Origin: a virus
DNA length: 64,000 nt
Virus record (IMG/VR): IMGVR_UViG_3300025154_000063
Span: 24,994-88,993 of that record
Direction: 5' to 3' (one strand)
Shown here: piece after piece, positions 8,432 to 34,454 of the stretch
How positions within the stretch are numbered: the first letter of the stretch is position 1
Layout: every line of letters begins with the position of its first letter
The notes under the pieces: generated by a model
Told to the model about the DNA's origin: nothing
The model's input: the letters and a program-made list of their open reading frames with translations, nothing else
The model's database searches: none
Translations under genes and position numbers: made by a program

Positions 8432-10755
8432 GAGACTTACCTCCTTTGAGTAAGTTGAAATGTGTCTTGACATTATCCTGACCACTTATATAAACCATGG
8501 TTACGATGATTGTCAGATTATCAATACGTCCACATGTACTCTTTTCTGATTTTTTGTCACCATGTTGGAGTCCACGTAGATTGATACTATCAAACAAATG
8601 ATATAAACTTTGCCACCTCTTTCCAAAAGTACAGTCCAGAATTCTTGACACGTCACTTACTGAGACGTATGTGCCACTGAGAACATGTGTCTGGTCAACG
8701 TCATAAATATTGACCATATATGCTATCTTTCGCCAGAACATAGTGTCACCTATAGTCGAACGTATCCATCACACACGGTGATTGAATAATTGACACCTTT
8801 TTGCAATGGGCTGACCCATACACCCATCACTGTGTCAATCCAGTAATTGTCAACGTGTCCTGCAGGTATCCAGCTTACTGGTGCTCGGCAGACTTCCACT
8901 TTCCAGATGCCAATGAACTCACGTTCAATTACACCTGAGTGCTCAGCCTTGAGAAACAGATGCCGAACCTCATCTCTGCATATGTCCATACGAATTCCTT
9001 TGAGTGTGTCGAGCATGGTGTCTGCGTTGCTGAATATTCCAGCGAAATCCAGACGACCTGCCTCGTACCAAAAGTTCACAACATAAGCATACTGCATTGT
9101 CAATCCTCCTCACTAACAGTCTGCAGCAAGTGCTACATTACAAAGTCACAGTCGCACTCCGTAACTTCGTATCGTAGTCTCACTATGAAATAATATTGAT
9201 TGTCACCTTACCTTTCTTGATATTTGCCATCTGGTTACCTACACCCTTGCCAACGGGGTACAGGGTCATCATGTGCACCAGTTCGTAAGTGACCTTGTTG
9301 TGAGTCTTGGCTACAACACTGTCACCCTGCAGGTGGTACACGGTTGAGTATGCCGCTGTGTCGTACTCAGCAGGCAAAGTGGCTTTCGCCTTGGAAATCA
9401 GAGCAAAGGATACATCAATGTCGAGCATAGTTCCTCCTATCGAACCATTGCGATGGTCACGTCGTGTGCCATGTCACACTCAGTACATTGCACAGTGGCA
9501 ACAATGAAGTCGTGCTTGTCACCACAGCCACACTCACAGGTCACAGTCTCAACAACTGTCTGACCGACCCGTGAGATTACTTCACGTCCGTTGCACTCGT
9601 GAGCAACGAATGTCCCCTTACTGTCACGAACATTACAACCGTTGATAGTCATTGCTACCTCCATCAATGAGCAGGCACATCCTACTCTTACAAGTGTCCA
9701 CGTCACCATGGACACTGGTAAAAGTGGGAGCTGTTAGGGGTCAGCTCCCTTGACCCTACCCGTCAGCACCAGTAGATGCAGTCTATTAAGCTGGCTGCAT
9801 CACCGTTGAGACCCAAGGATATGAGCGTGTACTCAATTACATCCTTGTCACTGACCGAACCAACGTGGTCACCCTGCTCATCGAGCGGCAGGTGCACTCG
9901 CAATTCACCTGCGAGTCTACGACCACCTATCTCATTCATCACCCTGTGCAGTGGGTGACTTTCGAGCATCTTCCGCCATGCCATGGCTGAGTCAAAGTCC
10001 ATGCCACAAGCCTTCTCTTTCAAGCTGACCTCGATGTAGATGTCTACATCACGTGGTGACACTCGCTCATCGAGCATGACCGAGTAAATCCGTGCCATGT
10101 CTTCATACTGGGGTCTGTATGAAGTGTGGGCGTTGCGTCCGGCAGACGCTGGGATGTTCCAACCGAAGTAGACTTGTGTAGACATTAGATGCTCCTTAGA
10201 ATTGTCACCAGATTGTTGAGCTGGTTGAGTATGGGGGTCAGTAATTCTGACCCTGCAGTGACTGTTACCACTGCGACTATCAGGAAGAAGAGTGCTACTA
10301 CTTTCTGCATGGTGCTCCTTGAAATCTGTCTGGTTCTAGCGGGTGGCTACTCGGTATCCGAGCAGGAGTGCTGGGCTGCTGAATACTAGGGTACTGCCGT
10401 ACATTCCATACTTGCCGAAGGTTCGCACTGGGGCGGTCTCTGAGTACCCGTCGCACTTGCATACTGTCCCGTACTTGTCGACCTTTGCGTTGATGGCCCA
10501 GTTGCCTGCTGCCGTGATGTAGGCATCATACTTGCGGGTGTCTTCGGTGTGCTCAAGTGCTCGGTTCGCTCTGGACTGTGCGTGCCACTGTGCTCTGGCC
10601 TCGACTGGTATCGTCCGTGCTATCACTGCCTGTCTTCGCCATTTCCCGTCACTCAGATTGCAGTGCAGGGTCGTCGTCGCCTGTGCGGTGTCGCCTGCGT
10701 AGTGTATTCCGTTCTTGTCAACTGTGGTGAAATTTCGGTTCGCTATGTAGTTCAT
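8415..10755 (-). other. Cluster of small hypothetical early genes
   Basis: Minus-strand ORFs 8415..8741, 8750..9103, 9183..9428, ~9437..9652, 9763..10185, 10336..10755, most with GGAG RBS. Confidence 0.65.
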
Positions 10756-10769
10756 GGTATCCTCCGTGT

Positions 10770-11250
10770 CGCCTGTGTCTGGTTGTGGCAACCTGCCCTG
10801 TCACCATGTCAGTAGCATGGTGTCAGGATACTTGTCACAACCCCCTGTAAAATCTGTCATTATCTCGCCGACGCTCGAAATTTCTCTCGATGAACCCTTG
10901 CTCGCATCCCCTGCCGTCACTATAGGGGCTCGATGTCATATGGGTCTTTGTCTACTTATGGGAGTGTATTTCACGCTGCCGTGATTTATCACCGTCGATC
11001 GCTACTCGATGGGCACTCTGTGGGCGGGTCGATGGTCAGGCTGTCCATTCGTCGGTACTTTTACACCTGTGTTACTCAGCTAGGGAGACCGTTTCCTGAT
11101 AGTCGCTATATCCGCTTACCTGCCGTTCTAGTCAGGGTTCGCCGTGTTCACTAGGCACAGCTCCGCCCGCAGAATTCAAAATGGGTTCAGTTGTAAAGGT
11201 TCAGAGACATAACTCAAGCTAGTGAAGCCGGAAGTAAAATCTCATTGATA
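10770..11250 (-). ncRNA. Long structured non-coding leader or ncRNA upstream of the first early gene (element A)
   Basis: No credible ORF; several inverted repeats (TTCACTAG/CTAGTGAA, CTGCGGGCGG/CCGCCCACAG, TCGAGA-GAAA-TTTCGA); leftward promoters upstream; strand inferred. Confidence 0.5.
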
Positions 11251-11437
11251 GACAAAGTATAGCATACCCAAAACATTACGCAGAGGCACTCGGTTGGGGA
11301 AATTATCGAGGAGTTCTGGCACGTAAGTGGGTCAGACGCTCACGTTTACAGTATAAAAATATCCCGTTCGCAGCCACCTCGCTAACACGCACCCACGCCA
11401 ACAGGTAACAGCTGTCTCCGGCTGTGTCATAGTTGCA

Positions 11438-11466
11438 ATTATAAATGATGTATTGGAATTTGTCAA
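11438..11466 (-). promoter_or_regulatory. Consensus sigma70 promoter for the early arm
   Basis: TTGACA-17-TATAAT. Confidence 0.8.
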
Positions 11467-11515
11467 GTGTCAATAGCCCCCTAATAACAGTTTAATTTTT
11501 TTATTTTTAGATAAG

Positions 11516-11541
11516 AAAAATCCCTCAGTTAAGAGGGATTT
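11516..11541 (-). terminator. Rho-independent terminator
   Basis: AAATCCCTC-TTAACT-GAGGGATTT followed by a T run. Confidence 0.8.
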
Positions 11542-11549
11542 CTCAATCT

Positions 11550-11790
11550 ACTTGCAGTGGTCAGGTCACTGAGCTGACAGTGTATTCGCAGATTTCTAGG
11601 AAGCCGGCAAACAGCTTTCTGCTAGCTGTGGGTTCTGACTCGTGATACAGGAGCTTATAGTCTGCCTAGTCTACTGCCCTTACTGACCCACAATCACCCT
11701 GTCTTACGTCTTAGTGGCGCACTCTCCTCACTGCACTGCAAGCAGCGAACCCAAGACCGGTATCGTGCTGACTTCAACCGACCTGAGAAA
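11550..11790 (-). ncRNA. Orphan structured RNA (element E)
   Basis: CTTGCAGTG/CACTGCAAG 9-bp long-range stem, TGTGGGT/ACCCACA, 5' hairpin; lies between a stop codon and a terminator. Confidence 0.6.
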
Positions 11791-11795
11791 CCTAA

Positions 11796-14515: not shown

Positions 14516-14545
14516 ATGCCTCCTTGAATATTAGAGGATAAAAAG

Positions 14546-14617
14546 AGCGCCTGAGAGGTGCTGCCCCCCCGTTTCTTCGTTCGTAGCGAAGTGCCCTATC
14601 TGTTGGACGACAGGCGC
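14546..14617 (-). tRNA. tRNA-Arg(ACG)
   Basis: Acceptor GCGCCTG/CAGGCGC; CTTCG-CTACGAA-CGAAG; atypical T loop GGCAGCA. Confidence 0.8.
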
Positions 14618-14625
14618 ATATTATA

Positions 14626-14715
14626 TAGTTGGAAAAGTCTACCAGATATTCCCGCTTGAGCACGTCCGGCTATCCTAGTCGTGGCGGACTTTTTAAAGGG
14701 GCTCATAACCAACTA
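14626..14715 (-). ncRNA. Orphan structured RNA between tRNAs
   Basis: TAGTTGG/CCAACTA and AAAAGTCCGCCA/TGGTAGACTTTT stems; possible TGAGC/GCTCA pseudoknot. Confidence 0.55.
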
Positions 14716-14718
14716 GAG

Positions 14719-14790
14719 TGCTCTACGTCGGAGTCAAACCGGCGTTACTGCGTTGAGAGCGCAGCGTACTAATCACTATACTAGTAGAGC
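14719..14790 (-). tRNA. tRNA-Glu(CUC)
   Basis: GCTCTAC/GTAGAGC; CTGCG-CTCTCAA-CGCAG. Confidence 0.85.
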
Positions 14791-14793
14791 GTG

Positions 14794-14867
14794 TGCAGCT
14801 AGCAGGAGTCGAACCTGCAGATTTCACTTTTTGAAAGTGCTGCCTATGCCTATTCGGCTATAGCTGC
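14794..14867 (-). tRNA. tRNA-Leu(CAA), short variable region
   Basis: GCAGCTA/TAGCTGC; loop TTCAAAA; T loop TTCGACT. Confidence 0.8.
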
Positions 14868-14870
14868 ATA

Positions 14871-15086
14871 TTAAATTTTAACTGGGTCAATTATACACTT
14901 TCTAACACTTAAATATACATATGAACCATAGTCACCACATCCTGCCATATCCTCATCACCATCCCACTTATGAGCAATTTCTTTCAAGATATATTCTTCC
15001 GGCTCTACACTTAACACTATTGGCCCATAATGGTCTCCACTTTCTGATGTAGCTAAGATAACCCAAACTTCTGTTCCAGATAACAT
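14871..15086 (-). CDS. Hypothetical protein inside the tRNA array
   Basis: ORF with AGGAGG RBS before MLSGTEV. Confidence 0.6.
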   Translation of the reverse strand: MLSGTEVWVILATSESGDHYGPIVLSVEPEEYILKEIAHKWDGDEDMAGCGDYGSYVYLSVRKCIIDPVKI

Positions 15087-15105
15087 GTGTCCTCCTAAAT
15101 ATAAG

Positions 15106-15182
15106 AGCAAGCGGCGGGGGTCGAACCCGCATTTTCATCCTTTATGCACGTGGTGCTTAGAAGGCACGGCCATTACGCTCGC
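15106..15182 (-). tRNA. D-armless tRNA-Arg(UCU)-like RNA
   Basis: GCGAGCG/CGCTTGC; GTGC-CTTCTAA-GCAC; GCGGG-TTCGACC-CCCGC; about 8 nt where the D arm should be; ~22-nt variable region. Confidence 0.65.
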
Positions 15183-15187
15183 ATGAG

Positions 15188-15261
15188 TGCCAGAGGAGGG
15201 AGTCGAACCCTCAGACCTAGAGGTTTAAGCTCTCTGCATATGCCTATTCTGCTACACTGGC
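15188..15261 (-). tRNA. tRNA-Leu(UAA), short variable region
   Basis: AGAG-CTTAAAC-CTCT; GAGGG-TTCGACT-CCCTC. Confidence 0.8.
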
Positions 15262-15274
15262 TTGTATTACTGTG

Positions 15275-15355
15275 TGCTCCTGAGAGGACTCGAACCTCCA
15301 CACCTTGCGGCACTTGCTTCTAAGGCAAGCGTGTCTACCGTTCCACCACGGGAGC
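15275..15355 (-). tRNA. tRNA-Leu(UAG)
   Basis: CTTGC-CTTAGAA-GCAAG; long variable arm. Confidence 0.9.
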
Positions 15356-15376
15356 ATAACCCTCTTTCGAGGGATG

Positions 15377-16471
15377 TTATCCTGTTGCTTTGAAGTTATA
15401 GATAGGCTTAATAACTTCTATTATATCTGCTGTTGGTGCTATATCATCTACAATTGTTTGCATTGACTTGTAAGCATTTGGTGCTTCATCCAGTGTGGAT
15501 GCTCCTACAGTACTACTATAAACACCCTTCATGCTACTAACAAACTCATCTAAGTCCAGAGTCTTCTTTGCAACATTTCTTCCCATCAATCTACCTGCTC
15601 CGTGGGGAGCTGATAAATTCCAATCTTCATTTCCTTTACCAACACATATTAAAGAACCATCACGCATATTGATAGGGACAATAAAGATTTCATCTTTCTT
15701 TGCTGACACAGCGCCCTTTCTTATCATACCCTGTGACACGTAGTTATGAATTGTTTCAAAACGTCCGATGTTCTGGATGCCAACAAACATGAAGTTTACA
15801 ATAAGGTTTGATATTACTTCCCTATTAAGGCTAGCATATTTTTGACATATCTCCATGTCGTGTAAGTATCCCTCACGTGCTTCACCTGTTAAGTAACACA
15901 GGTCTTTTGGAACACTTGCATCACAAGAGTCAACAGCTACCTTCTGCCAGTACTCAGCAACCTGCTTTCCTAGGTTACGGCTTCCAGAGTGAACAACTAA
16001 GTAGATATTGCCGTCTGTGTCTTTGTCAAGCTCGATGAAGTGGTTACCACCACCTAGTGTTCCTATCTGCAGTGGAAATACCTGCTGCTTCTTTAACTTC
16101 TTGTAACAATATAGGTCTACTATATCCCCGAAGTTTTTTACAACTGTTAGGTGTGAGTTATGTCCACTTGGAATTATTGTGTGTACTGCATTGTCAAAAG
16201 CACGTAGGTCTAGCTTTACTTTTCCTAAGTTGGTAACGTGCATTCCACACCCAATGTCAACTCCAACAAGGTTAGGAATTACTATCTCTCCCAGCTCTGC
16301 AGTAAACCCTATTACACATCCTGCCCCAGCATGGTAGTCTGGCATAATACGAACGCTCTTTCCATGTGTAAAGCTCTGGTTAAGTAATTCAATTATCTGA
16401 CTTACTGCCTTATCTTCCCCAACATCAGAGAATACTTTTGCTGTTGCATATTGTCCTGTTAATTCAAACAT
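15377..16471 (-). CDS. rtcB: RtcB RNA 2',3'-cyclic-phosphate/5'-OH ligase
   Basis: MPDYHAG, VGVDIGCG, GTLGGGNHF, HSGSR, HNY, RKGA, HGAGR, DEAP..YK. Confidence 0.97.
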   Translation of the reverse strand: MFELTGQYATAKVFSDVGEDKAVSQIIELLNQSFTHGKSVRIMPDYHAGAGCVIGFTAELGEIVIPNLVGVDIGCGMHVTNLGKVKLDLRAFDNAVHTIIPSGHNSHLTVVKNFGDIVDLYCYKKLKKQQVFPLQIGTLGGGNHFIELDKDTDGNIYLVVHSGSRNLGKQVAEYWQKVAVDSCDASVPKDLCYLTGEAREGYLHDMEICQKYASLNREVISNLIVNFMFVGIQNIGRFETIHNYVSQGMIRKGAVSAKKDEIFIVPINMRDGSLICVGKGNEDWNLSAPHGAGRLMGRNVAKKTLDLDEFVSSMKGVYSSTVGASTLDEAPNAYKSMQTIVDDIAPTADIIEVIKPIYNFKATG

Positions 16472-16500
16472 AACTTCCTCCTGTACAAATTTATATTAAG

Positions 16501-16572
16501 TGCTCTGTAGGGGAGTCGAACCCCTGTTACTTGGGTGAAAGCCGAGCGTCTTAACCGCTGGACTAACAGAGC
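16501..16572 (-). tRNA. tRNA-Glu(UUC)
   Basis: GCTCTGT/ACAGAGC; loop CTTTCAC. Confidence 0.9.
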
Positions 16573-16579
16573 ATGCCCC

Positions 16580-17416
16580 CTAATATTCTTTTAAAACCAT
16601 CCCGTAGTTATTCACACCATTAGGTATAGAAAGACCAGCTTTTCTTATCAGTTGGTTATTCAAGAATGGCTTATAATTAACATCGTGATGCCACCTACCA
16701 TACCTGAAAACAACCTTTACTACATCTGGATGCTGGCGCTGCAAAGACTCAGCAAACTCTTTCCTATTGTCCCCTGTGTTATAGATGGTGTCAGTATTGC
16801 CACCCGCCATGGTCATTGTTCCTGCCTTATTCTGCAGGAATCCCTGAAACAACACAGTGCACCAACCATCTTTTAGTGCTCTTAAGGATATGTCTGTATC
16901 CTCATTATACTTTCCACGCCATCTGTAAGGTATGCTATTGTTTACAAGAATACAAGAATACGTCCTAGTGTTTAGCCTGAATGGTGCTTTTTCTCTTCGT
17001 GCTCCACCAGCAAACTGACGGTACTCAAAGCTAGCTAAGGCAACATTAGTATACCTGTCAACAAAGTCCTCAGCACACTTGAAAATAGTGCCTGATGTTA
17101 CCTTTGCTCGCACGTTCCTGTTGAGTCTTTCAAAACCATTGATGTTATCGTCAAGTATCCAATGTCTTTCAAAACCTGCAGCCATGGAGTGTTCCCATAC
17201 CCAATTGCGAGCAGGGGTAGAACCTAAACCTAAGTTACTAAAAGGCAAAACATATATCTTACTTCTTGGTGTATCCTTAGAGTAGTCGTTGTATTCCTGC
17301 GGTTCAATCACTAACTTGTAAGGTACACCTATCTCTTCTAGCTTGTGGGCTGTGGTGTGGTTATGTGCCCTGCCCTTAGAGATTATGTATACGGGATACT
17401 CAGGATTCATCCACAT
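16580..17416 (-). CDS. TET-associated glycosyltransferase-like (TAGT/GREB1-like, GT-A fold)
   Basis: YPVYIISKGR, ARNW, HWILDDNI, YSCIL, YNEDTD, GGNT motifs. Confidence 0.8.
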   Translation of the reverse strand: MWMNPEYPVYIISKGRAHNHTTAHKLEEIGVPYKLVIEPQEYNDYSKDTPRSKIYVLPFSNLGLGSTPARNWVWEHSMAAGFERHWILDDNINGFERLNRNVRAKVTSGTIFKCAEDFVDRYTNVALASFEYRQFAGGARREKAPFRLNTRTYSCILVNNSIPYRWRGKYNEDTDISLRALKDGWCTVLFQGFLQNKAGTMTMAGGNTDTIYNTGDNRKEFAESLQRQHPDVVKVVFRYGRWHHDVNYKPFLNNQLIRKAGLSIPNGVNNYGMVLKEY

Positions 17417-17624
17417 ACTCCCGCAGTATTTTGTCTGTCTTTACTGGGAAAAATATACCCTTAGTTTTCATGGTAATTTTTCTACCAATCAATTTTGAGA
17501 AAGCATCCATATCTTCAAGAGATTCAAAGTGTACCATCACACCCTTTATGCTTTCTTTATCTTCTTGCACAAACTCTGGCATATCTTGCCACTCATTAAA
17601 TATCTCTTGCTTGCCTTTAAGCAT
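17400..17624 (-). CDS. Small partner protein typical upstream of phage TAGT genes
   Basis: EWQDMPEFVQE...VHFES...ITMKTKGIFFP; AGGAGG RBS; overlaps the TAGT start. Confidence 0.65.
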   Translation of the reverse strand: MLKGKQEIFNEWQDMPEFVQEDKESIKGVMVHFESLEDMDAFSKLIGRKITMKTKGIFFPVKTDKILREYVDES

Positions 17625-17637
17625 AAGTCCTCCTGTT

Positions 17638-17720
17638 AAAAGTATACCCAGTTTCGCCATGCCCTCACCCACCCAACTGTAAAGTCTTCATTGTGAGGTA
17701 GTGTGTAGCTGCAGTACTTT
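17638..17720 (-). ncRNA. Orphan structured RNA after tRNA-Gln(CUG)
   Basis: AAAGTA/TACTTT closing stem; CCTCAC/GTGAGG inner stem. Confidence 0.4.
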
Positions 17721-17725
17721 AAAGG

Positions 17726-17797
17726 CAGTCCTAGATAGTTTCGGGCTATCAACCTTCTCGCTCAGAACGAGTTGCTCTACCTTTGAGCTATAAGACT
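17726..17797 (-). tRNA. tRNA-Gln(CUG)
   Basis: AGTCTTA/TAGGACT; CTCG-TTCTGAG-CGAG; T loop CCCGAAA. Confidence 0.75.
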
Positions 17798-17799
17798 AG

Positions 17800-17870
17800 T
17801 GCGGGTGACAGGATTTGCACCTGCACAGGCTGGGTGGAAGCCAGCAATGCTACTGTTACACCACATCCGC
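17800..17870 (-). tRNA. tRNA-Gly(UCC)
   Basis: GCTGG-CTTCCAC-CCAGC. Confidence 0.85.
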
Positions 17871-17876
17871 ATATAT

Positions 17877-17948
17877 TGGGAGCGTCCTGCCATTAGACTA
17901 ACAGACCCATAAGGTGCTGTAGGGGTATTGAGCCCACTGTTTCTCCCA
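17877..17948 (-). ncRNA. Circularly permuted, anticodon-less tRNA-like RNA
   Basis: Order: GGGAG, AAAC, T arm, ACAG(C)ACC, loop TTATG, GGTCTGT, D arm GTCT-AATGGC-AGGAC, CTCCC. Confidence 0.7.
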
Positions 17949-17950
17949 TG

Positions 17951-18021
17951 AGCGGAATATCGGATTTGAACCCATACTCAATGCTCGGCAAGCATTTGCG
18001 CTACCGTTACGCCAATTCCGC
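17951..18021 (-). tRNA. tRNA-Gly(GCC)
   Basis: GCGGAAT/ATTCCGC; AATGC-TTGCCGA-GCATT. Confidence 0.85.
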
Positions 18022-18076
18022 AATATAATATTTCTATGCTTGAATGATACTAATGAAATATTAAAACAGTCCATTG

Positions 18077-18158
18077 TGGGCAGAGAGGGATTTGCACCCC
18101 CAAGACCGAAGTCGGGCGGGTTACAGCCGCTGAGTGTCACTATTCACTGCTTCTACCC
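18077..18158 (-). tRNA. tRNA-Tyr(GUA)
   Basis: GCGG-CTGTAAC-CCGC; variable arm GAC-TTCG-GTC. Confidence 0.8.
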
Positions 18159-18165
18159 ATATTTT

Positions 18166-18312
18166 GTCTGTTCACAGCATCCCGTCAAGGTCGGATTGCC
18201 ATCATTCTCTACTTTGTCTCAGGTAGGGTTTCTACATACTGCCTATAATCAGTACCCACCATTGCTCGCCTTGGCCTTTATTGACATTTCAAAGAATGGA
18301 CGCAGGACAGAC
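18166..18312 (-). ncRNA. Orphan structured RNA (element C)
   Basis: Nested GTCTGT/ACAGAC, GCGTCC/GGATGC, TGTCAA/TTGACG; hairpin TACTG/CAGTA. Confidence 0.55.
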
Positions 18313-18327
18313 TTGTCCTTGTCACTG

Positions 18328-18401
18328 TGACCCTGAGAGGATTTGCACCTCCAACCCTCCGCTTAAAAGGCGGTTGCAATATCTACTCTTGCTACAAGGC
18401 C
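18328..18401 (-). tRNA. tRNA-Lys(UUU)
   Basis: CCGC-CTTTTAA-GCGG. Confidence 0.85.
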
Positions 18402-18406
18402 GTAAG

Positions 18407-18479
18407 TGCTCCCAGCAGAGTCTGAGTCTGCATTAGATGATTAAGAGTCACCTACATTTTCCGTTTATGTTATGGAAGC
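18407..18479 (-). tRNA. tRNA-Lys(CUU)
   Basis: GGTGA-CTCTTAA-TCATC; T arm GCAGA-CTCAGAC-TCTGC. Confidence 0.75.
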
Positions 18480-18860
18480 AAGTTTTATTTTTTGTTTATA
18501 TTCTTTATTATGTTTTGATTTTGTTGTAACACACTCAATGCAACGACAATATCTATAAGAAGATAATGTACCATGAGTATTTTTTGCATTACTTCTTCCT
18601 AGGTTTGACAATGTTTTTTCTATGTGACAATCTACACATAATAATTGACATTTTTCTAACTCAATAATAAGACTTTTAATTGAGCCAACCAGCATATCTG
18701 ATATGTTTTTATTTTTTGTGTTTGGGTCAATGTGGTCAAACTCTAACCCTTTATCAGAACCACAAATAGTACATACATTTCCAAGCTGTTTTTCTGCCCA
18801 TGCTCTTCTAGCAGCATATCTTGTATTCATATATACTCGCATATACTCATTAGTTGACAT
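18465..18860 (-). CDS. HNH endonuclease
   Basis: CTICG...LEFDHIDP..K...CQLLCVDCH; C-terminal HGT..Y..CRC..C. Confidence 0.9.
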   Translation of the reverse strand: MSTNEYMRVYMNTRYAARRAWAEKQLGNVCTICGSDKGLEFDHIDPNTKNKNISDMLVGSIKSLIIELEKCQLLCVDCHIEKTLSNLGRSNAKNTHGTLSSYRYCRCIECVTTKSKHNKEYKQKIKLASIT

Positions 18861-18892
18861 ATAAGCTCCAACACTAATTTACTAAACTTAAG

Positions 18893-18965
18893 TATTGTTG
18901 AGTGGAGTCGAACCACCAACCAGCTGGATATAAGCCAGATGCTCTAACCATTGAGCTACAACAAT
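18893..18965 (-). tRNA. tRNA-Ile(UAU)
   Basis: ATTGTTG/CAACAAT; CTGG-CTTATAT-CCAG. Confidence 0.8.
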
Positions 18966-18976
18966 ATATTACAAGG

Positions 18977-19048
18977 CGGCTCGTACGGGTACTGACCCCG
19001 CTACCATCCGCTCGACAGGCGGGCGCTCTTCCGGTGAGCTAACAAGCC
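18977..19048 (-). tRNA. tRNA-Asp(GUC)
   Basis: CCGC-CTGTCGA-GCGG; G73. Confidence 0.8.
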
Positions 19049-19065
19049 AATTAACTTACTTATTA

Positions 19066-19094
19066 ATTATACAGCATGTAAAGCCCTTTGTCAA
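19066..19094 (-). promoter_or_regulatory. sigma70 promoter inside the tRNA array
   Basis: TTGACA-17-TATAATTAAT. Confidence 0.8.
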
Positions 19095-19109
19095 GGGGCA
19101 ATTTCAAAG

Positions 19110-19189
19110 TGCCTGTTGAGGGAGTCGAACCCACATTCACAGCTCCGTTTACGTATAGTAGTTTAGGAAACTACCTCGGCTAAACAGGC
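19110..19189 (-). tRNA. D-armless tRNA-Arg(CCU)-like RNA
   Basis: GCCTGTT/AACAGGC; GGTAGT-TTCCTAA-ACTACT; 7-nt D remnant; long variable region. Confidence 0.65.
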
Positions 19190-19193
19190 AAAT

Positions 19194-19226
19194 AAAAAGA
19201 GAGCTAACTTTAGTAAGCTAGCTCTC
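19194..19226 (-). terminator. Rho-independent terminator
   Basis: GAGAGCTAGCTT-ACTA-AAGTTAGCTCTC-TTTTT. Confidence 0.7.
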
Positions 19227-19473
19227 ATGGTTGCCGTTCCCTAATACGGCAAAGAAAAGTTTTGCTTACTACTTGGTAATATCCATGAGTGTCCCTTGTT
19301 CATAGGCAATACCAAATATAATGGTCTGTGTATCTTGACCATCTAATCTATACTCACCTATGCGTTTATCAAAGTTACTCATTAAATACTCCTAGATATA
19401 TTCATCTTCTTTAAATCGCCACAACACAGCGGCGAGTCTTCTTGATATAATTACTACAATCACAAAGCATAAC

Positions 19474-19809
19474 TTATTGAGCATTGGCTATCCTTAGTAA
19501 AACATCTTGCATGGAGTTACACCTGTTGTCACCAAATTTCAAGGGAATGCAATGACACCCTATACAAAATATTGTATCAACATTATGGTCATTATGTGGG
19601 GCTACTTTATAACCATATAACATTGAACCATTACACATGTAATAATGAGACACAATAATTGGTATTTCTTCTATCAACACACTTCCAAGATAAAACTCTC
19701 GCAACAAAGAATTTATAGTCTCTATATTCTCAACCCATGTTTTGCGAGTTTGAATAGATAGTTGAGGTTTTGTAAACGGTGTTTTTATTTCCACCACCTC
19801 TAGGAACAT
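19474..19809 (-). CDS. Hypothetical protein
   Basis: 111-aa ORF between tRNAs. Confidence 0.5.
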   Translation of the reverse strand: MFLEVVEIKTPFTKPQLSIQTRKTWVENIETINSLLREFYLGSVLIEEIPIIVSHYYMCNGSMLYGYKVAPHNDHNVDTIFCIGCHCIPLKFGDNRCNSMQDVLLRIANAQ

Positions 19810-19848
19810 ATCTTGCCCCTTTCAACCTGATAATATAAAACATAATAG

Positions 19849-19919
19849 TGGAGCTAAGAGGAGTCGAACCTCCGTCAGATGCGTGCAAGGCAACTGTAAT
19901 CCCGTTATACGACAGCCCC
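19849..19919 (-). tRNA. tRNA-Ala(UGC)
   Basis: GGGGCTG/TAGCTCC with G3.U70; loop CTTGCAC. Confidence 0.9.
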
Positions 19920-19930
19920 AGACTTACTAG

Positions 19931-20002
19931 CTCACCTACGTGGATTTGCACCACGAACCCTTCGGGTAACAGCCGAGCGCTCTACTATTGAGCTATAAGT
20001 GA
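19931..20002 (-). tRNA. tRNA-Asn(GUU)
   Basis: TCGG-CTGTTAC-CCGA. Confidence 0.85.
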
Positions 20003-20231
20003 ATATGGTTACTTACATAATTCTTCATATTTCCATTTAAATTCTTGAAGTGCTGTTACTGCAACTTTCAAGGTGGCATTATGTTCTTCTAATGCTACAA
20101 TGTAATTCTTTATTACTACGGCTAATTTCTGGTCAAGAACATAGGCAAGTGCTATATTAGCTTTTTCTCTTTCTACTGACAATTGCTCTTCTGCCATCAC
20201 ATTTCTCCTGTACAAGTTTATACTACTAAGG

Positions 20232-20303
20232 CAGTCCTGAATGGATTTGCACCACTAACCTTATGCTTCAAAGGCATCTGCTCTGCTGTTGAGCTACAAG
20301 ACT
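20232..20303 (-). tRNA. tRNA-Gln(UUG)
   Basis: ATGC-CTTTGAA-GCAT. Confidence 0.85.
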
Positions 20304-20309
20304 ATAAGG

Positions 20310-20381
20310 CGGGAAAGGTGGGAGTTGCACCCACATCTTGCAGTTTTGGAGACTGTTATCCTGCTATTAAACGACTCGCCC
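20310..20381 (-). tRNA. tRNA-Trp(CCA)
   Basis: CAGT-CTCCAAA-ACTG. Confidence 0.85.
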
Positions 20382-20382
20382 G

Positions 20383-20456
20383 TGGAGTATGGTAGGGATT
20401 TACACCCAATTTTACTATCAACCAATTACGGTCAATCTACGCCTATACGCTCATAC
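20383..20456 (-). ncRNA. Degenerate tRNA-like RNA ending in an encoded CCA
   Basis: GTATG/CATAC-T-CCA; T-arm-like GGG-TGTAAAT-CCC; no clear anticodon arm. Confidence 0.4.
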
Positions 20457-20459
20457 AAG

Positions 20460-20529
20460 TAGCGGGTGAGAGAGTTGCACTCTCAGGGTCAGGCTTATGA
20501 GGCCTGTTGTCAACTGCTGACTACCCGCT
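20460..20529 (-). tRNA. tRNA-Met(CAU), reduced D arm
   Basis: AGCGGGT/ACCCGCT; CAGGC-CTCATAA-GCCTG. Confidence 0.7.
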
Positions 20530-20589
20530 ATGCTGGTGTCCCCTATATGAGGACACTGAATATCTTTTGTACACATGGTACATAGACTG

Positions 20590-20662
20590 AGCCGCAGGTC
20601 AGAACTGCCCTGACAACCATCCGCTTACAAGGCGGGCGCTCTACTAATTGAGCTACAACGGC
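20590..20662 (-). tRNA. tRNA-Thr(UGU)
   Basis: CCGC-CTTGTAA-GCGG. Confidence 0.8.
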
Positions 20663-20856
20663 ATATTAACTTCTTCTACTTCTGAGAGGTCAATTATATT
20701 CTCGTGGTTAATTGCACCCCAACGAAAGTAATCGTGACCACCATCAACAAACACTTCGCCACACTTACAGCTTACCCAATCATGCCTATAATGACTTTCA
20801 ATGACATCACTACACAGCTTGCACTGCACCCTGTTATGAATAATATTTGTCGTCAT
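20653..20856 (-). CDS. Small zinc-binding phage protein (DUF7695-like)
   Basis: CKLCSDVIES..RHDWVSCKCG..FVDGG; GGAGG RBS. Confidence 0.65.
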   Translation of the reverse strand: MTTNIIHNRVQCKLCSDVIESHYRHDWVSCKCGEVFVDGGHDYFRWGAINHENIIDLSEVEEVNMPL

Positions 20857-20883
20857 ATTGCCTCCTGTGTTGATAAATAAAGG

Positions 20884-20955
20884 TCGAGGAAAGTGGAGTT
20901 GCACCACCATTTTCTCGCTTCCAAAGCGAGGCTCTTGCTTTTAGAGGACTCCTCG
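20884..20955 (-). tRNA. tRNA-Pro(UGG)
   Basis: CTCGC-TTTGGAA-GCGAG. Confidence 0.85.
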
Positions 20956-21009
20956 ATAGGGGGGTATTATCCCGCCAACCACATAGTGGACGGAGGTACA
21001 ACACCCAAG

Positions 21010-21082
21010 AGTTCGGTGTGGGAGTCGAACCCACCAATTACCCTTTTGCAGAGGGCAGCCTAAGCCGCTTGGCATACCGAGC
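21010..21082 (-). tRNA. tRNA-Cys(GCA)
   Basis: GCCCT-CTGCAAA-AGGGT; U73. Confidence 0.9.
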
Positions 21083-21088
21083 ATACTG

Positions 21089-21160
21089 TGCCACCGACTG
21101 GTATCGAGCCAGTCTGGCCTGCTTTTCAGACAGGAGCTAATCCGTCTCAGCTACAGTGGC
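21089..21160 (-). tRNA. tRNA-Phe(GAA)
   Basis: CCTGT-CTGAAAA-GCAGG. Confidence 0.85.
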
Positions 21161-21170
21161 ATATTATTAA

Positions 21171-21471
21171 AGAGGTATCCGAAGCACGGGTAATACCCTC
21201 TTTGTCGTGGTCTTTTACACCACATGCTCGACTTTTCATTTAGAACCATTCCAACGCTGGTAAACTGCTGGCTGACTAGAGGTTAGGTGAATTGCGTGTC
21301 ATGCTCACACCTGTCGTACCTTATTGGACTCCATACAATAAAGTAGTTGCCTTTGTGTCCTTACAGTTTTTAGAGACTACCCTTTTCTGACACTCACCCT
21401 TTCGGGAAGTTGGATGATTCTTAGAACCCATTAGTAGTGGATTCTACGAACAGAGCTGTGCCTAGTGAACA
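21171..21471 (-). ncRNA. ~300-nt structured RNA (element B) whose 5' segment matches 11145-11188
   Basis: AGAATCAT-CCAAC/GTTGG-A-ATGGTTCT long-range stem, CCC-GAAA-GGG, TACTTTATTG/CAATAAGGTA, GTGGT-GTAAAAG-ACCAC; flanked by tRNAs. Confidence 0.7.
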
Positions 21472-21474
21472 AGG

Positions 21475-21561
21475 CGGAGCAGGAGAGAGTCGAACTCCCA
21501 ATGCCTTTAACAGCGAATTCGTTTTCAAGACGGGTTTCGTCACCATTCGATTTGCTGCTCC
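21475..21561 (-). tRNA. tRNA-Ser(UGA)
   Basis: GGAGCAG/CTGCTCC; loop CTTGAAA; long variable arm. Confidence 0.8.
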
Positions 21562-21571
21562 GTATTTATAT

Positions 21572-21655
21572 CCTGAGACTCCCGCTTCTCCACTCAGGTT
21601 TGCACCATGCACAGGCTGTATCATCCGTGCTATTATAGCCATTGCTGTGATGCAG
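21572..21655 (-). ncRNA. Small structured spacer RNA
   Basis: CTGCATCA/TGATACAG, GCTA-TAA-TAGC, CCTGAG/CTCAGG. Confidence 0.4.
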
Positions 21656-21691
21656 TTTTATTTTATATAGCGTCTATCTAAACTAATACAG

Positions 21692-21778
21692 AGGAGAAGA
21701 AAGGATTTGAACCTTCGGGGGATTTCTCCCCTCCCGCTTTCTAGGCGGGTGCATTAAGCCAGACTCTGCCACCTCTCC
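21692..21778 (-). tRNA. tRNA-Ser(AGA)
   Basis: CCCGC-CTAGAAA-GCGGG; Ser-type D arm and long variable arm. Confidence 0.85.
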
Positions 21779-21789
21779 GAATTACCAAA

Positions 21790-21912
21790 TGGCCTTGCGG
21801 GAGTCAAACCCGCCTTCCGATTAGCCGCATTATCGTTGTACTAGTAAGCGTGCACACTCGCTAGCCTTACGAAGTCAGCAGGGTCTCAGTGTGCTTCGTA
21901 CACTAAACGCCC
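21790..21912 (-). ncRNA. tRNA body with ~60-nt insert in the anticodon loop (element F)
   Basis: D arm GTGT-ACGAA-GCAC; T arm GCGGG-TTTGACT-CCCGC; imperfect acceptor; CTGA/TCGG stem enclosing the insert. Confidence 0.6.
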
Positions 21913-21928
21913 ATGTGAAACTTACAGG

Positions 21929-22013
21929 CTGAGAATAAGGGAATTGAACCCCTGCGTCCTTGCGGGCGACTACGGTTTAGCAAACCGTTGCATTACCTCT
22001 CTGCCAATTCTCA
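21929..22013 (-). tRNA. tRNA-Ser(GCU)
   Basis: ACGGT-TTGCTAA-ACCGT; long variable arm. Confidence 0.9.
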
Positions 22014-22016
22014 AAG

Positions 22017-22067
22017 CTGGGTGGAGGGAGTCCCACCCTCTGCTGCCGTGTTACAAGACACCACCCA
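22017..22067 (-). ncRNA. ~50-nt mini tRNA-like RNA lacking a D arm
   Basis: TGGGTG/CACCCA, GTGT-CTTGTA-ACAC, GAGGG-TGGGACT-CCCTC. Confidence 0.5.
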
Positions 22068-22072
22068 TAAGG

Positions 22073-22146
22073 TGCTTAACCTCTGATTCGAACAGAGAAC
22101 CTTCCGTGTATCAGACGGGTGCGCTGACCAATTGCGCCAGTCAAGC
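22073..22146 (-). tRNA. tRNA-Ile(GAU)
   Basis: CCGT-CTGATAC-ACGG. Confidence 0.85.
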
Positions 22147-22160
22147 ATTTTTATTACAAG

Positions 22161-22233
22161 TGCCCATAGAAGGACTCGCACCCTCAACCCTCTGTGTGTA
22201 GGACAGACGCTCTAACTGTTGAGCTATATAGGC
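22161..22233 (-). tRNA. tRNA-Val(UAC)
   Basis: TCTGT-CCTACAC-ACAGA (C33). Confidence 0.85.
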
Positions 22234-22239
22234 ATAATA

Positions 22240-22320
22240 CTCAGTTCCTGACCTATTAGATGAAGACCCATTTGTGCTGTTCCTGCACGAGCCTACGGGA
22301 GTCGAACCCGCATTACTGAG
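22240..22320 (-). ncRNA. Circularly permuted, anticodon-less tRNA-like RNA
   Basis: CTCAG-TAAT-GCGGG TTCGACT CCCGT-AGGCTCG-[17-nt loop]-TGGGTCT-TC-ATCT AATAGGTC AGGA-A-CTGAG. Confidence 0.8.
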
Positions 22321-22323
22321 GTG

Positions 22324-22396
22324 AGCCAAAGGTGGGAGTCGAACCCACAGCTGCTTACTTACCAAGTAAGAATTCTACCACATGAATTTCTTCGGC
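22324..22396 (-). tRNA. tRNA-Thr(GGU)
   Basis: CTTAC-TTGGTAA-GTAAG. Confidence 0.9.
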
Positions 22397-22407
22397 TTAT
22401 TATAAGG

Positions 22408-22481
22408 TCAGGTAGGTGGGACGTGCGCCCACTTTCTCCGGTTCACAGCCGGCCACATTACTACTTATGCTACTACCATGA
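22408..22481 (-). tRNA. tRNA-His(GUG), irregular acceptor
   Basis: CCGG-CTGTGAA-CCGG; no evident G-1:C73. Confidence 0.7.
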
Positions 22482-22517: not shown

Positions 22518-22546
22518 ATTATACACTATTATAAAGCTTTTGTCAA
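22518..22546 (-). promoter_or_regulatory. sigma70 promoter at the head of the tRNA array
   Basis: TTGACA-17-TATAATTAATG. Confidence 0.85.
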
Positions 22547-23562: not shown

Positions 23563-24917
23563 TTTATTACCCTTTCAACTGCTTGTTTCCAATTTTCCAC
23601 GGATATTGTAAAACCATGTCTCAGCCCGTAGAGTGATATAATTCTATCTGCCTCAACTATATTTAATTTTAACTTAAATATATCTGACTGTAAACATCTG
23701 GTGCAAACCCCATCTACCAAGACATCCCCCCATTCAGCATGTCCGCACTGTACACAGTCTTCTGGAACACAGGGCTCTAGTGCACTATAGCTACCAACTC
23801 TTTTAATGCTCACAGTTATCCCTCCCCAAACTTTTCCAGCCACTCACGGCTGTCTTTTCTCAAAGGCTCACTTGTCTCATCCGAACCATTTACAGTGCTA
23901 ATTATATCCTCTGCACCACTTCTAGCAGAACGTAAGTTACAATAAACATCTACAGCATCTTTCACAGCCTTATCTAAACCATGCTCTGCTTCATAGTGCC
24001 CACCATCACGGTGTACATATGCTAGTAGTATGGATAGCCTATCATGCAGTCTACTATTTTCTGCTTTCAATTCAGCAATTACAACAGCTGTAGCATAGTC
24101 ATTAACCCACTTATCATAGGCATCTTCACCGGAAATATTAGTAAGTATTGTTGCTTTATCTCGGTTAAGGTCGTAGAGAAGCCCTTCGGTAGGCTGCCTG
24201 ATAATATCTTTAACAGGCATTCCCATAAGACCTTCCATTCCCTGAAACACTACGTTGCCCTTTTTTTCTTCTTCCAAAACAATTTTCTTAAATTCTTCTG
24301 CTCTATTACTCATGCTGTCTCCTGTTAACTGCCAGCGTGGTTACTTGTTATCTGTTGGCTGGCACGTCGGCTTGTTTGCGTGGTTGCTTGTGCCCTGTGG
24401 GTGCTGAGGTGGTGATTAGACTAGATTTCCCGGCCCATTTAGGAAGTCTAATAAATTCGTGATAGCCGCTTGAGCAGCTGTGTTGTCCCCTTTAGCCCTA
24501 GCCTCACGTATTTTTCTTGCCATAAATACAGCAATACGATAACGAATAGAAACAGATTTAACTTTAAGAATATACAATAAAAGTGCCTCAAATAACTTAT
24601 TGTATAACCATAAAAATGGGGCTTTAATTCTATCTAACAGATTCATTTTTTAACTCCTCATCTATAGTATTAAGTAACTTTCCTAACTCACACACTGGGG
24701 TGTGACCAATCCTTGCAGAGTCCTTATATTTCCTACCCCTATCTCCACCACACACGGCGCACATAAATGTTATGGGTGGGACAACTACTACAGGCCACTC
24801 CATCTTATTATGTGCAAGCAAGTCCCGCAGTTGTCTAAGTAATTTATGACTACTGGACGGGACTGGCTTATGGATAATCTGCAGGGCTTCTTTAAACCAA
24901 GCAGGCTGTGTTATCAT
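23559..24917 (-). other. Four hypothetical genes
   Basis: ORFs 23559..23843, 23816..24313, 24416..24646, 24630..24917. Confidence 0.6.
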
Positions 24918-25987
24918 TTAAACTCACTACCACCTTTTCTAGCAAGATAGGCAGCACTAACACTCTTTAAAACTTTGCGACCAACCTTCCAATGATTAGT
25001 CTCATCAAGAGAACGAATAACAATACCCTCTCTCATTTGTTTGTGGTCAAAGTATGATTGCCCTTCTGTTAGCATATCAACCGTGTGCTGGTTGAATACA
25101 CCAATATACATTGTTGGCACAGTTGGAATGTTGTGTTTTAGTGAAAATTCCACAACCTTTTCCCAAGGTAGGTAAACACCATTTTCTTTAATATCAAAGA
25201 TAGCTACCTTGATGTCACTAAGACCATACTCTAGGTCTTGAATTCCTTTCCCGTAAACCTCTCCATAGACAATAACACCATTAGGGATTATTTCTTTGAA
25301 GTTATATTTATCTACTATCTTAGCATAAACATCCATTTCATAGTAGTTTCTTCCCCTGCCTGCCAACTGTACGTTGTGTGAACCATAACAAAACTCATAT
25401 TTCTTACCAAAGAGTAACTTAATTCTAGCAAGAACACGATACCACCAAGGCTGACCAGCATCAATTTCTATTGGCAACCAACCAGCACACCAGTTTGAAC
25501 CATGGATTTTTTCTGTTATTACAACGTGGTCATCTTCTGTAAATACATCAGGAAAATTTTTAATATTTTCCATTTCGAAGTACTTAGAAAAGTGAGGATT
25601 CATACGTTTTCTAGTAGCTCTAGGAGCACCTTGTATAGTACGTTCCGGCTGCACATACTTAGTAATTCCCATTACCTCAGCAACATCATCACCCTCTTTG
25701 TATTTTCCTTTTGGCACAGGCAATACTAGCCCTTGTGACAAGTATCCACGTAGACGAACAGTACCGGTTCTCTTATTACCTTTAAGATAAGTTAATTCGT
25801 GCTCATCTATTAGACTATCTGGGAGAACACAATCAGGTGGAATGAATACAACCAAGTCATCAACTTTGTAGCTATCTTTTTGGATGATACAATTCCAACC
25901 CTTTATAACAGCAATATCCAATCTATCAGCATTTGGATGTGGCTGTACATCTTTTACTTTACAAACTTCAACAATTAAACTTGACAT
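24914..25987 (-). CDS. ATP-dependent RNA ligase, DRB0094 family
   Basis: N-terminal HPNADRL OB fold, RLRGYLSQG, TEKIHG, YGEVYG, FDI, REGIV, LKSVS..YL. Confidence 0.9.
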   Translation of the reverse strand: MSSLIVEVCKVKDVQPHPNADRLDIAVIKGWNCIIQKDSYKVDDLVVFIPPDCVLPDSLIDEHELTYLKGNKRTGTVRLRGYLSQGLVLPVPKGKYKEGDDVAEVMGITKYVQPERTIQGAPRATRKRMNPHFSKYFEMENIKNFPDVFTEDDHVVITEKIHGSNWCAGWLPIEIDAGQPWWYRVLARIKLLFGKKYEFCYGSHNVQLAGRGRNYYEMDVYAKIVDKYNFKEIIPNGVIVYGEVYGKGIQDLEYGLSDIKVAIFDIKENGVYLPWEKVVEFSLKHNIPTVPTMYIGVFNQHTVDMLTEGQSYFDHKQMREGIVIRSLDETNHWKVGRKVLKSVSAAYLARKGGSEFK

Positions 25988-34331: not shown

Positions 34332-34376
34332 TTTTTATTTCCTCCGTTTAGGGTTAGTTTATGACTTACGATATTA

Positions 34377-34454
34377 ATTATACACTATATTTACATCTGT
34401 GTCAAGGGGCAATATTTTTATCCCCTTGCAATTATTTTGTTTTTATGGTATAAT
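34377..34454. promoter_or_regulatory. Divergent sigma70 promoter pair at the strand switch
   Basis: Minus TTGACA-17-TATAAT (34377-34405); plus TTGCAA-17-TATAAT (34426-34454). Confidence 0.8.

Follow-up and report, generated by a model that had tools for sequence, protein, structure and literature searches.

An inverted repeat shared by a tRNA-array spacer and the leader of an orphan operon in a phage genome

Two predicted leftward transcription units and their non-coding segments

The IMG/VR virus record analysed here comprises 88,993 bp and is rated 100% complete; its last 126 nt duplicate bases 9-134, from which it follows that the assembly closes on itself. DNA of the same phage is also present in groundwater and soil metagenome runs, among which no RNA run is listed. 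We analysed a window of 64 kb (bases 24994-88993 of the record), and positions are those of the window unless genome positions are named. Up to ~34.4 kb, the genes of the window are on the minus strand, and rightward structural genes (terminase, portal, tail) are found from 35 kb on. The region 14.7-22.5 kb holds a tRNA array of 24 genes according to ARAGORN and 25 according to Rfam, all on the minus strand and interrupted by genes for an RtcB ligase, a glucosyltransferase-like protein, an HNH endonuclease and a DUF7695 protein. The tRNA and RNA-repair region of this phage is unusually rich. Four perfect TTGACA-16/17-TATAAT promoters are present on the minus strand, at 22546, 19094, 14155 and 11466, and those at 22546, 19094 and 11466 belong, together with a fourth site at 34373-34420, to one extended sequence family (D2). 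Moreover, the phage encodes a protein with ParB_N, HTH_ParB and KorB domains (genome positions 19386-20189) as well as two HTH_23 proteins.

Spacer B is a non-coding segment within the tRNA array (Table 1), and a single terminator-like site, which is weak (5-pair), lies between the promoter at 22546 and this spacer. As described in the first-pass annotation, B starts right after a tRNA-Ser(UGA) gene; this gene is, to be precise, a sub-threshold tRNA-Ser-like gene, which was missed by ARAGORN and scored 30.2 bits in Rfam, as tRNA-Sec, against a gathering score of 47. Its anticodon stem contains non-standard pairs, CCA is not encoded, and it is 77-80% identical to the tRNA-Ser regions of several phages. 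Several other tRNA genes of the array (e.g. those for Asp, Val and Met) are also without CCA, and their trailers begin with TTGT or a similar T-rich run. At its 3' end, just before tRNA-Phe, spacer B forms a long hairpin (~21165-21203), which could protect a released RNA.

The part of B beyond its 5' segment had been described as a multi-stem scaffold. The predicted fold of the minus strand of B has an energy of -82.4 kcal/mol while shuffled sequences gave -75.3 +/- 4.9 kcal/mol (z = -1.45), and 8 of 100 shuffles folded as stably, which does not support a scaffold; for the plus strand, z was -0.77. Among the Rfam 15 families, only tRNAs reached gathering scores in the window, and at E <= 10 only weak matches at chance level were obtained over B and the leader described below. 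The search of B with Rfam models, including HEARO, which the first-pass annotation had proposed, thus returned no family match.

The second locus, locus A, lies in the long untranslated leader of an operon to the left of the array. In this leader, the complement of A occupies nt 243-292 as counted from the inferred 5' end, and the start codon follows at a distance of 385 nt. On the minus strand, the leader folds worse than shuffled sequences (z = +2.03; 20 shuffles). Because neither B nor the leader has excess structure, the folding results lend support to neither a scaffold nor a structured leader. The first protein of the operon, of 139 aa, found only itself as a homologue among 5.8 billion proteins, and is encoded on 8 contigs; for this protein and the 140-aa protein of the same operon, no Pfam or PHROG family was found, and their Atlas structure models are poor (pLDDT 0.36 and 0.44). 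The leader and the four ORFs after it, for whose products no family was found, have a G+C content of 0.46-0.59 (stretch ~9200-11430) compared with ~0.35-0.42 on the right flank. Downstream of A there is no gene on the plus strand, and the promoter scan gave no plus-strand site for 9500-12001. The possibility that the sequence upstream of A is a decayed tRNA was considered and rejected: no tRNA match was obtained there at E <= 10, and the only resemblances were a GGTTCG motif and a 14-nt colinear GATAG(A/T)CGCTATAT, a match reached by 8 of 300 shuffles.

Table 1. Features of the two loci and their transcription units (window positions)
Feature	Position	Strand	Remarks
Sigma-70 promoter, perfect consensus TTGACA-17-TATAAT	22518..22546	-	Heads the tRNA unit containing B
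tRNA-Ser(UGA)-like gene	21475..21561	-	7-bp acceptor stem, T arm, anticodon loop CUUGAAA
Copy B of the repeat	21424..21476	-	Spans the end of the tRNA-Ser(UGA)-like gene and ~50 nt at the start of the spacer; 19-mer 21471->21453; 9-bp hairpin 21446->21422
Spacer B, 314 nt, non-coding	21161..21474	-	Between the tRNA-Ser(UGA)-like gene and tRNA-Phe
tRNA-Phe(GAA)	21088..21160	-	From tRNA gene calls; 5' processing would set the 3' end of a released B RNA
Terminator-like hairpin, strong, 12 pairs and T run	19199..19226	-	Would end the tRNA unit of B
Sigma-70 promoter, perfect consensus	11438..11466	-	Precedes the leader holding the complement of A
Untranslated leader, ~676 nt	10756..11431	-	5' end deduced from the position of the -10 hexamer
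Copy A of the repeat	11140..11188	+	Same sense as B(-); 19-mer 11145-11163; 7-bp hairpin 11172-11188; complement in the leftward leader RNA
First gene after the leader, 139-aa orphan protein	10336..10755	-	GGAGGA ribosome-binding site, ATG

Extent, statistics and predicted pairing of the repeat

The minus strand at the 5' end of spacer B, B(-), and the plus strand at locus A, A(+), share an identical 19-mer (Table 1). The ungapped match extends to 33 of 39 positions (A(+) 11140-11178 and B(-) 21476-21438), and a gapped alignment of A(+) 11140-11188 with B(-) 21476-21424 has 43 matching columns out of 53, among them those of the final AATGGGTTC; the gap corresponds to a 4-nt difference in a hairpin loop. 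The 19 identical nucleotides and the 29 matches in 34 positions reported in the first-pass annotation were, in this way, recovered. The five differences in the 34-nt core are all transitions, four of which have C in A(+) and T in B(-), and a sixth difference, at the tRNA border, is a transversion.

To the 19-mer there were two matches in the window at <=3 mismatches, a number given by none of 100 shuffles, and no third copy was found in the whole 88,993-bp genome at <=5 mismatches. Likewise, a profile built from the two sequences identified these two places only. When B was compared with the window by blastn, the match to A had an E-value of 1.6e-5 (short task) or 1e-6 (+1/-1 scoring), and multiplication by ~140, as an all-against-all correction for the genome, left it below 0.01. 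The pair (I1) is the best inverted repeat in the window and the longest of the 19 pairs listed; outside the patch, the similarity of loci A and B does not rise above chance. In total, we conclude that the repeat is real and statistically secure.

The repeat begins at the last acceptor base of the tRNA-Ser-like gene, and CGCC (last acceptor base, discriminator and CC) is common to A and the tRNA end. MAFFT extends the similarity by ~8 nt into the 3' acceptor strand, where 6 of the 8 bases before CGCC match. The core reads TGT-N9-ACA, which is a loose dyad. It is followed by a hairpin, GAAYCCA/TGGGTTC, that is present in the minimum-energy folds of A(+) and B(-) and absent from that of A(-), in agreement with the first-pass annotation, with loops of 3 and 7 nt in the two copies and local z-scores of 0.0 and -1.99. 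The two hairpins are followed by AAGAAT and AGTTGT, and neither copy is listed as an intrinsic terminator in the terminator scan. The trailer start is typical of the array at B and reads GTGT at A, which suggests that B is native and that A is the copy.

Two additional matches between the loci had been noted earlier. The sequence TCTAGTCAG is present at 21280->21272 and 11127-11135, but was never the best alignment in any comparison. Similarly, GGTGTAAAAG(T)ACC is present on the minus strand at 21221->21209 and 11067->11054, where it forms the best local alignment between the rest of B and the left part of the leader; its score, however, was reached by 59 of 300 shuffles. Neither of these matches exceeds chance level, and together with the main repeat they are not arranged colinearly at A and B. 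Two further candidates were rejected. A conserved small protein is not encoded, since the common ATGGGTTC opens frames of 36 aa (B) and 13 aa (A) that share only Met-Gly-Ser; and a second spacer/leader pair, 21640-21670 with 2895-2925, was attributed to chance because the partner is part of a 126-aa ORF and the common core has 12 nt. The idea of a CRISPR-repeat mimic was likewise dropped, with no hairpin or array of that kind apparent.

Each copy is part of a leftward unit headed by a perfect sigma-70 consensus promoter, and the two RNAs would therefore be complementary. Between nt 1-53 of B and the leader at 11189-11140, a duplex of -76.5 kcal/mol is predicted; with costs of 20.3 and 22.1 kcal/mol for opening the two partners, the net energy is -34.2 kcal/mol. 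In the genome background (1776 windows of 200 nt, both strands), duplex energies had a mean of -29.7 kcal/mol and an sd of 6.0 kcal/mol, and the best window besides the complement of B itself and A reached -47.1 kcal/mol. When the two RNAs were co-folded, the dimer had an energy of -314.6 kcal/mol compared with -278.0 kcal/mol for the two monomers, i.e. a gain of 36.6 kcal/mol. The repeat core is almost unpaired in the predicted fold of B, and the local fold of the leader places part of the target in a 9-nt loop. In the duplex, 33 of 39 positions would form Watson-Crick pairs and four would form G.U pairs, while the fifth transition gives C.A and the border transversion U.C.

The strength of the predicted duplex follows from the repeat itself and does not imply function. 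The first-pass annotation had also pointed out that four C-to-T differences would keep G.U pairs; four of the five differences are indeed of this type, but the bias, judged by direction only, is not significant (P = 0.19). Nor is the unbroken run of 19 significant given the number of differences (P = 0.07-0.21, according to the way of counting the indel). As far as the two sequences can tell, nothing in the comparison of A and B separates selection from ancestry.

Origin and possible roles of the repeat

We tentatively favour the reading that A is a short inverted paralogous copy of the junction between the tRNA-Ser-like gene and its trailer; although we would not call this reading probable in absolute terms, an inverted trailer copy that has no proven function accounts for all features and needs the fewest assumptions. 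In such an event, ~50-57 nt spanning the end of the tRNA-Ser(UGA)-like gene and the start of spacer B would have been copied in inverted orientation into the leader at A, probably by illegitimate or mosaic recombination, and would have landed in the leader of a G+C-rich orphan operon. B would likely be the original and A the copy, as the direction of copying is suggested by the trailer starts. With both loci presumably transcribed leftward, the 5' end of the array-spacer RNA would, as a by-product, be complementary to ~50 nt of the leader RNA and could form a duplex with it. We infer that this pairing lacks a function, there being no sign of selection or of an effect.

Several observations are consistent with the inverted copy, an alternative that the first-pass annotation had itself mentioned and that fits at least as well as its main proposal. 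The repeat has only two copies in the genome. A similarity that starts inside the tRNA, entering its 3' strand, is what the copying of a fragment would give, and an antisense seed would not profit from it; similarly, a hairpin kept in the same sense is expected from the common descent of two copies and useless to an antisense pair. A lies in a stretch of odd composition with orphan proteins, which is the kind of place where mosaic joints occur. In addition, we count in its favour that B has neither excess structure nor an RNA family, and that the G.U bias and the clustering of differences are not significant. Against the inverted copy, the two copies have diverged by ~15-20% and still share an unbroken 19-mer with sharp borders, and the patch lies exactly where 3' processing of the tRNA would expose a single-stranded 5' end. 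Moreover, since the perfect promoters of the two loci belong to one sequence family, both RNAs are expected to encounter each other, and the predicted duplex is far beyond the genome background. Finally, the copying event has no identified mechanism or donor. If the repeat is a scar of recombination, it is an ordinary feature of a mosaic genome, and mainly useful for tracing the assembly of the G+C-rich orphan cassette.

An evolved trans-antisense pair, in which the released spacer B pairs with the leader of the orphan operon, is a serious rival that we nevertheless regard as unlikely. Here, maturation of the flanking tRNAs would free the 314-nt B RNA, the single-stranded 5' end of which would bind ~50 nt of the leader; cleavage by an RNase III-type enzyme or remodelling of the leader would then tie the output of the operon to transcription of the tRNA array. 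The near-perfect complementarity, with its 19 consecutive pairs, is unique in the genome, the duplex is the strongest predicted, the dimer is more stable than the monomers, and the patch occupies the outermost 5' nucleotides of the spacer and is mostly unpaired. Moreover, both loci are on the minus strand behind promoters that match the consensus at 12 of 12 positions, with one weak terminator-like site before B. These observations give the antisense proposal a physical basis. Against it, the G.U bias is not significant, the leader has no excess structure that could be remodelled, and B has neither excess structure nor an Rfam match. Similarly, the target is 385 nt upstream of the start codon and has no evident tie to translation, and the copy carries tRNA bases and a same-sense hairpin that an antisense function does not need. 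A shut-off of an early transcript, as had been suggested, is not supported, and no temporal switch is apparent: the promoters of both units belong to one family, and nothing suggests that they differ in timing.

In total, a trans-antisense pair is physically plausible, judging from the predicted energies, and the positive evidence for it is the repeat itself. That the spacer RNA of a tRNA array acts as a 50-nt antisense RNA and sets the expression of a foreign-looking orphan operon through duplex formation and cleavage by a double-strand RNase is, in our estimate, rather doubtful. If the pairing were used, long unexplained spacers in phage tRNA arrays could be regulatory RNAs freed by tRNA processing, and the two loci would offer a concrete pair, namely a patch of 50 nt and a defined leader, each behind a consensus promoter that is expected to work in E. 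coli.

It is improbable, to our judgement, that A and B are instead two instances of one cis site acting at the DNA level or in the same sense, i.e. a binding site for a regulator, e.g. a ParB/KorB-like protein, or a weak promoter with a 5' hairpin. In the promoter form, TTCACT-17-TAGAAT would be followed by the hairpin of the transcript, once in each orientation. A conserved core with a downstream hairpin that has the same sense in both copies is consistent with such a site, as are the loose dyad of the core and the ParB/KorB-domain and HTH_23 proteins encoded by the phage. B(-) matches a sigma-70 promoter at 9 of 12 positions (21469..21441), and A(+) has the same -35 hexamer and spacing with CAGAAT (by eye). 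However, promoter-like sites of at least 9/12 are near noise, as 45 were found in comparison with 27.7 +/- 5.6 in shuffled sequences; A(+) is below this threshold (8/12 by eye), and would fire into a region without a plus-strand gene. As for a protein-binding site, the core is not a true palindrome, the hairpin loops differ (3 vs 7 nt), only two copies exist in the genome, and no canonical chromosomal-type parS (16-bp motif) was found in the genome within 2 mismatches.

Very improbable is that the copies are the terminal inverted repeats of a mobile or invertible segment of 10.3 kb (11140-21476) that includes part of the tRNA array. The copies face inward, and the right edge falls on the 3' end of the tRNA-Ser-like gene, mobile DNA being often inserted at tRNA 3' ends; however, no resolvase/invertase (PF00239) or tyrosine recombinase (PF00589) was found in the genome at E <= 0.1, there is no transposase-like TnpB, the tRNA array extends on both sides of B, and no matching flanking duplication was seen by eye. 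Furthermore, no strand-switching joint was found at A or B in the contigs of four metagenome runs, contigs being a form of data from which rare forms are dropped.

The proposal that B is the guide-plus-scaffold RNA of an RNA-guided nuclease (omega RNA or HEARO type) targeting the DNA of locus A fits the layout of a 5' segment matching a distant locus followed by ~260 nt, but is close to refuted: HEARO (RF02033) had no match at E <= 10 in the genome, nor in a separate search of 21080-21700, and no Rfam family matched B, the sole match to the TnpB zinc ribbon (PF07282) was 11 bits, below the cut-off, in an 88-aa frame, the sole nearby HNH protein has 131 aa, no RuvC/HNH effector is among the annotated genes (part of the gene set is annotated), B lacks excess structure, and with such a guide the phage would target itself.

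Known systems, relatives and strain variation

Two systems provide precedents for a trans-antisense function of B. In E. coli, the 3' external transcribed spacer of the glyW-cysT-leuZ operon (3'ETS-leuZ) is reported to be an RNA sponge (Lalaouna et al. 2015, cited in PMC10710024). Like this spacer, B would be a piece other than tRNA that maturation frees from a polycistronic tRNA transcript and that acts by base pairing. The two differ in that the putative B RNA is an internal spacer and resides in a phage, and in that its complement of ~50 nt is nearly perfect and would be aimed at an mRNA leader; 3'ETS-leuZ reportedly pairs with small RNAs by way of short seeds, together with Hfq. If the antisense reading were true, B would be a phage counterpart of the tRNA-spacer regulatory RNAs, acting on mRNA and not on small RNAs.

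The second precedent is the C4 antisense RNA of phages P1 and P7, which is matured from a precursor by RNase P (PMC5499578). B would resemble it as a putative phage-encoded antisense RNA that is cut by a tRNA-maturing enzyme and acts on a phage mRNA. C4 is ~77 nt long, pairs by means of short loop sequences and has its target in its own operon; by contrast, B is 314 nt long, lies 10 kb from its putative target and matches no Rfam family. B belongs with neither 3'ETS-leuZ nor C4, as there is no common family model and B is much longer.

The tRNA clusters of T-even phages and T5 contain stable RNAs of uncertain role, and B could be of the same kind, i.e. a non-tRNA RNA that sits among phage tRNA genes and is freed when the tRNAs are processed; we know of no complementarity of those RNAs to another phage transcript. 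In T4-type phages, promoter-plus-stem-loop cassettes are short repeated boundary sequences at mosaic joints. The A/B repeat is like them a short intergenic repeat in which a promoter-like core is combined with a stem-loop, and it adjoins an orphan cassette of odd composition; unlike them, it is inverted and has two copies, one of which overlaps the 3' end of a tRNA, while the T4-type cassettes are multi-copy and direct. By analogy, the A/B repeat resembles, as a sequence, the short repeats left at phage mosaic joints.

Relatives were searched for with the 19-mer, five proteins and the DNA itself in IMG/VR, metagenome contigs, species genomes and GenBank phages, and in none of these was anything shared beyond single genes. 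The 19-mer had no match in IMG/VR or in 185,579 species genomes; among metagenome contigs it had one (L163), which is a chance match given that this contig has nothing else in common with the window. Identity was at most 51% among 80 of the 435 RtcB loci, and at most 68% among 80 of the 328 loci of the glucosyltransferase-like gene, where the similarity was limited to that gene. The terminase had no relative in IMG/VR, no relative of the DUF7695 protein was found, and the DNA polymerase had one IMG/VR locus, the closest, at 26% identity. Among GenBank phages, the portal protein had one match (29.5%), the locus B query was matched in its tRNA-Ser part alone (99 records, none of which covers 80% of the query), and region 9700-13700 had no match. 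Finally, B and the leader were compared with the retrieved loci by blastn and nhmmer (162 loci, 2.24 Mb in the last run), where no match was obtained besides one of 46 nt in locus L103 (E = 0.084), which was taken as chance. By these comparisons, we conclude that the phage is an orphan lineage.

The four metagenome runs that were compared contain contigs of near-identical phage; among the rows listed, those covering the B patch come from the probable source run only. One contig, from run X5, joins 21162 to 21788, with 54 letters on the shorter side of the joint at a likeness threshold of 80, and represents either a variant without B or the tRNAs of another organism. In the independent run X7 (record 18), which covers locus A over 10812-11207, A is identical, and the one difference, at 10998, is located outside A.

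The G+C-rich stretch around the leader

The untranslated leader that contains the complement of repeat copy A lies in a stretch with a G+C content of 0.46-0.59, compared to approximately 0.35-0.42 in its right flank, and on the minus strand of this stretch A is in strong excess over T. None of the four ORFs that share the stretch with the leader could be assigned to a family, and for the 139-aa protein a search of 5.8 billion proteins yielded zero homologues. The product of the 41-aa ORF is hydrophobic.

A 14-nt match, GATAG(A/T)CGCTATAT, is present upstream of the A copy at 11098-11111 (+) as well as upstream of the inverted B copy at 21678-21665 (-), with order and sense preserved; its score was equalled or exceeded in 8 of 300 shuffles.

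Features in and around the window (window positions unless stated)
Feature	Position	Strand	Location or content
ParB_N/HTH_ParB/KorB-domain protein	genome 19386-20189	minus	outside the window
G+C-rich orphan stretch	9200-11430		676-nt leader; four ORFs (139, 41, 140 and 92 aa)
ORF-free stretch, ~245 nt	11510-11795	minus	3' of the 70-aa gene
Sigma-70 consensus promoters (12/12), n=4	22546, 19094, 14155, 11466	minus	
RtcB ligase	15377-16471		within the tRNA array
RNA-ligase-family protein (PF09414 + OB fold)	24914-25987		2.4 kb upstream of the tRNA array

Consensus promoters and the ORF-free stretch

The promoters at 22546, 19094 and 11466 have an extended similarity of ~48 nt in common (sequence family D2), which is also present at a fourth site, 34373-34420 (-). 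The ORF-free stretch is closed by a terminator-like hairpin (11544 to 11510) directly ahead of the promoter at 11466, and an Rfam search of this stretch returned nothing beyond chance-level matches.

tRNA array

None of the tRNA genes listed in 14718-22479 encodes CCA, and several of them have trailers that open on TTGT or another T-rich run of this kind. Together, these tRNA ends point to a host in which tRNA maturation would proceed via RNase Z and a CCA-adding enzyme. An RtcB ligase and an RNA-ligase-family protein are encoded in or near the array, respectively (see table). Moreover, besides B, the 314-nt spacer that follows the tRNA-Ser(UGA)-like gene, the array has two more spacers of ~250-300 nt without a tRNA call (18022-18326 and 19227-19473).

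In one contig (depth 5.6) from the metagenome run X5, which has contigs of a near-identical phage, 21162 is joined to 21788, omitting B and both adjoining Ser tRNA genes. This joint could be a deletion variant or could reflect tRNAs of another organism.

ParB/KorB-like protein and the ends of the virus record

In the genome of this phage, which encodes a ParB/KorB-domain protein, no integrase or resolvase was seen, and a canonical parS was not found. Finally, genome bases 9-134, outside the window, are identical to the final 126 nt of the record (window 63875-64000) and, therefore, the record closes on itself. This closure would be either a circular assembly or terminal redundancy; the record is classified as linear despite the identity of its end and start.
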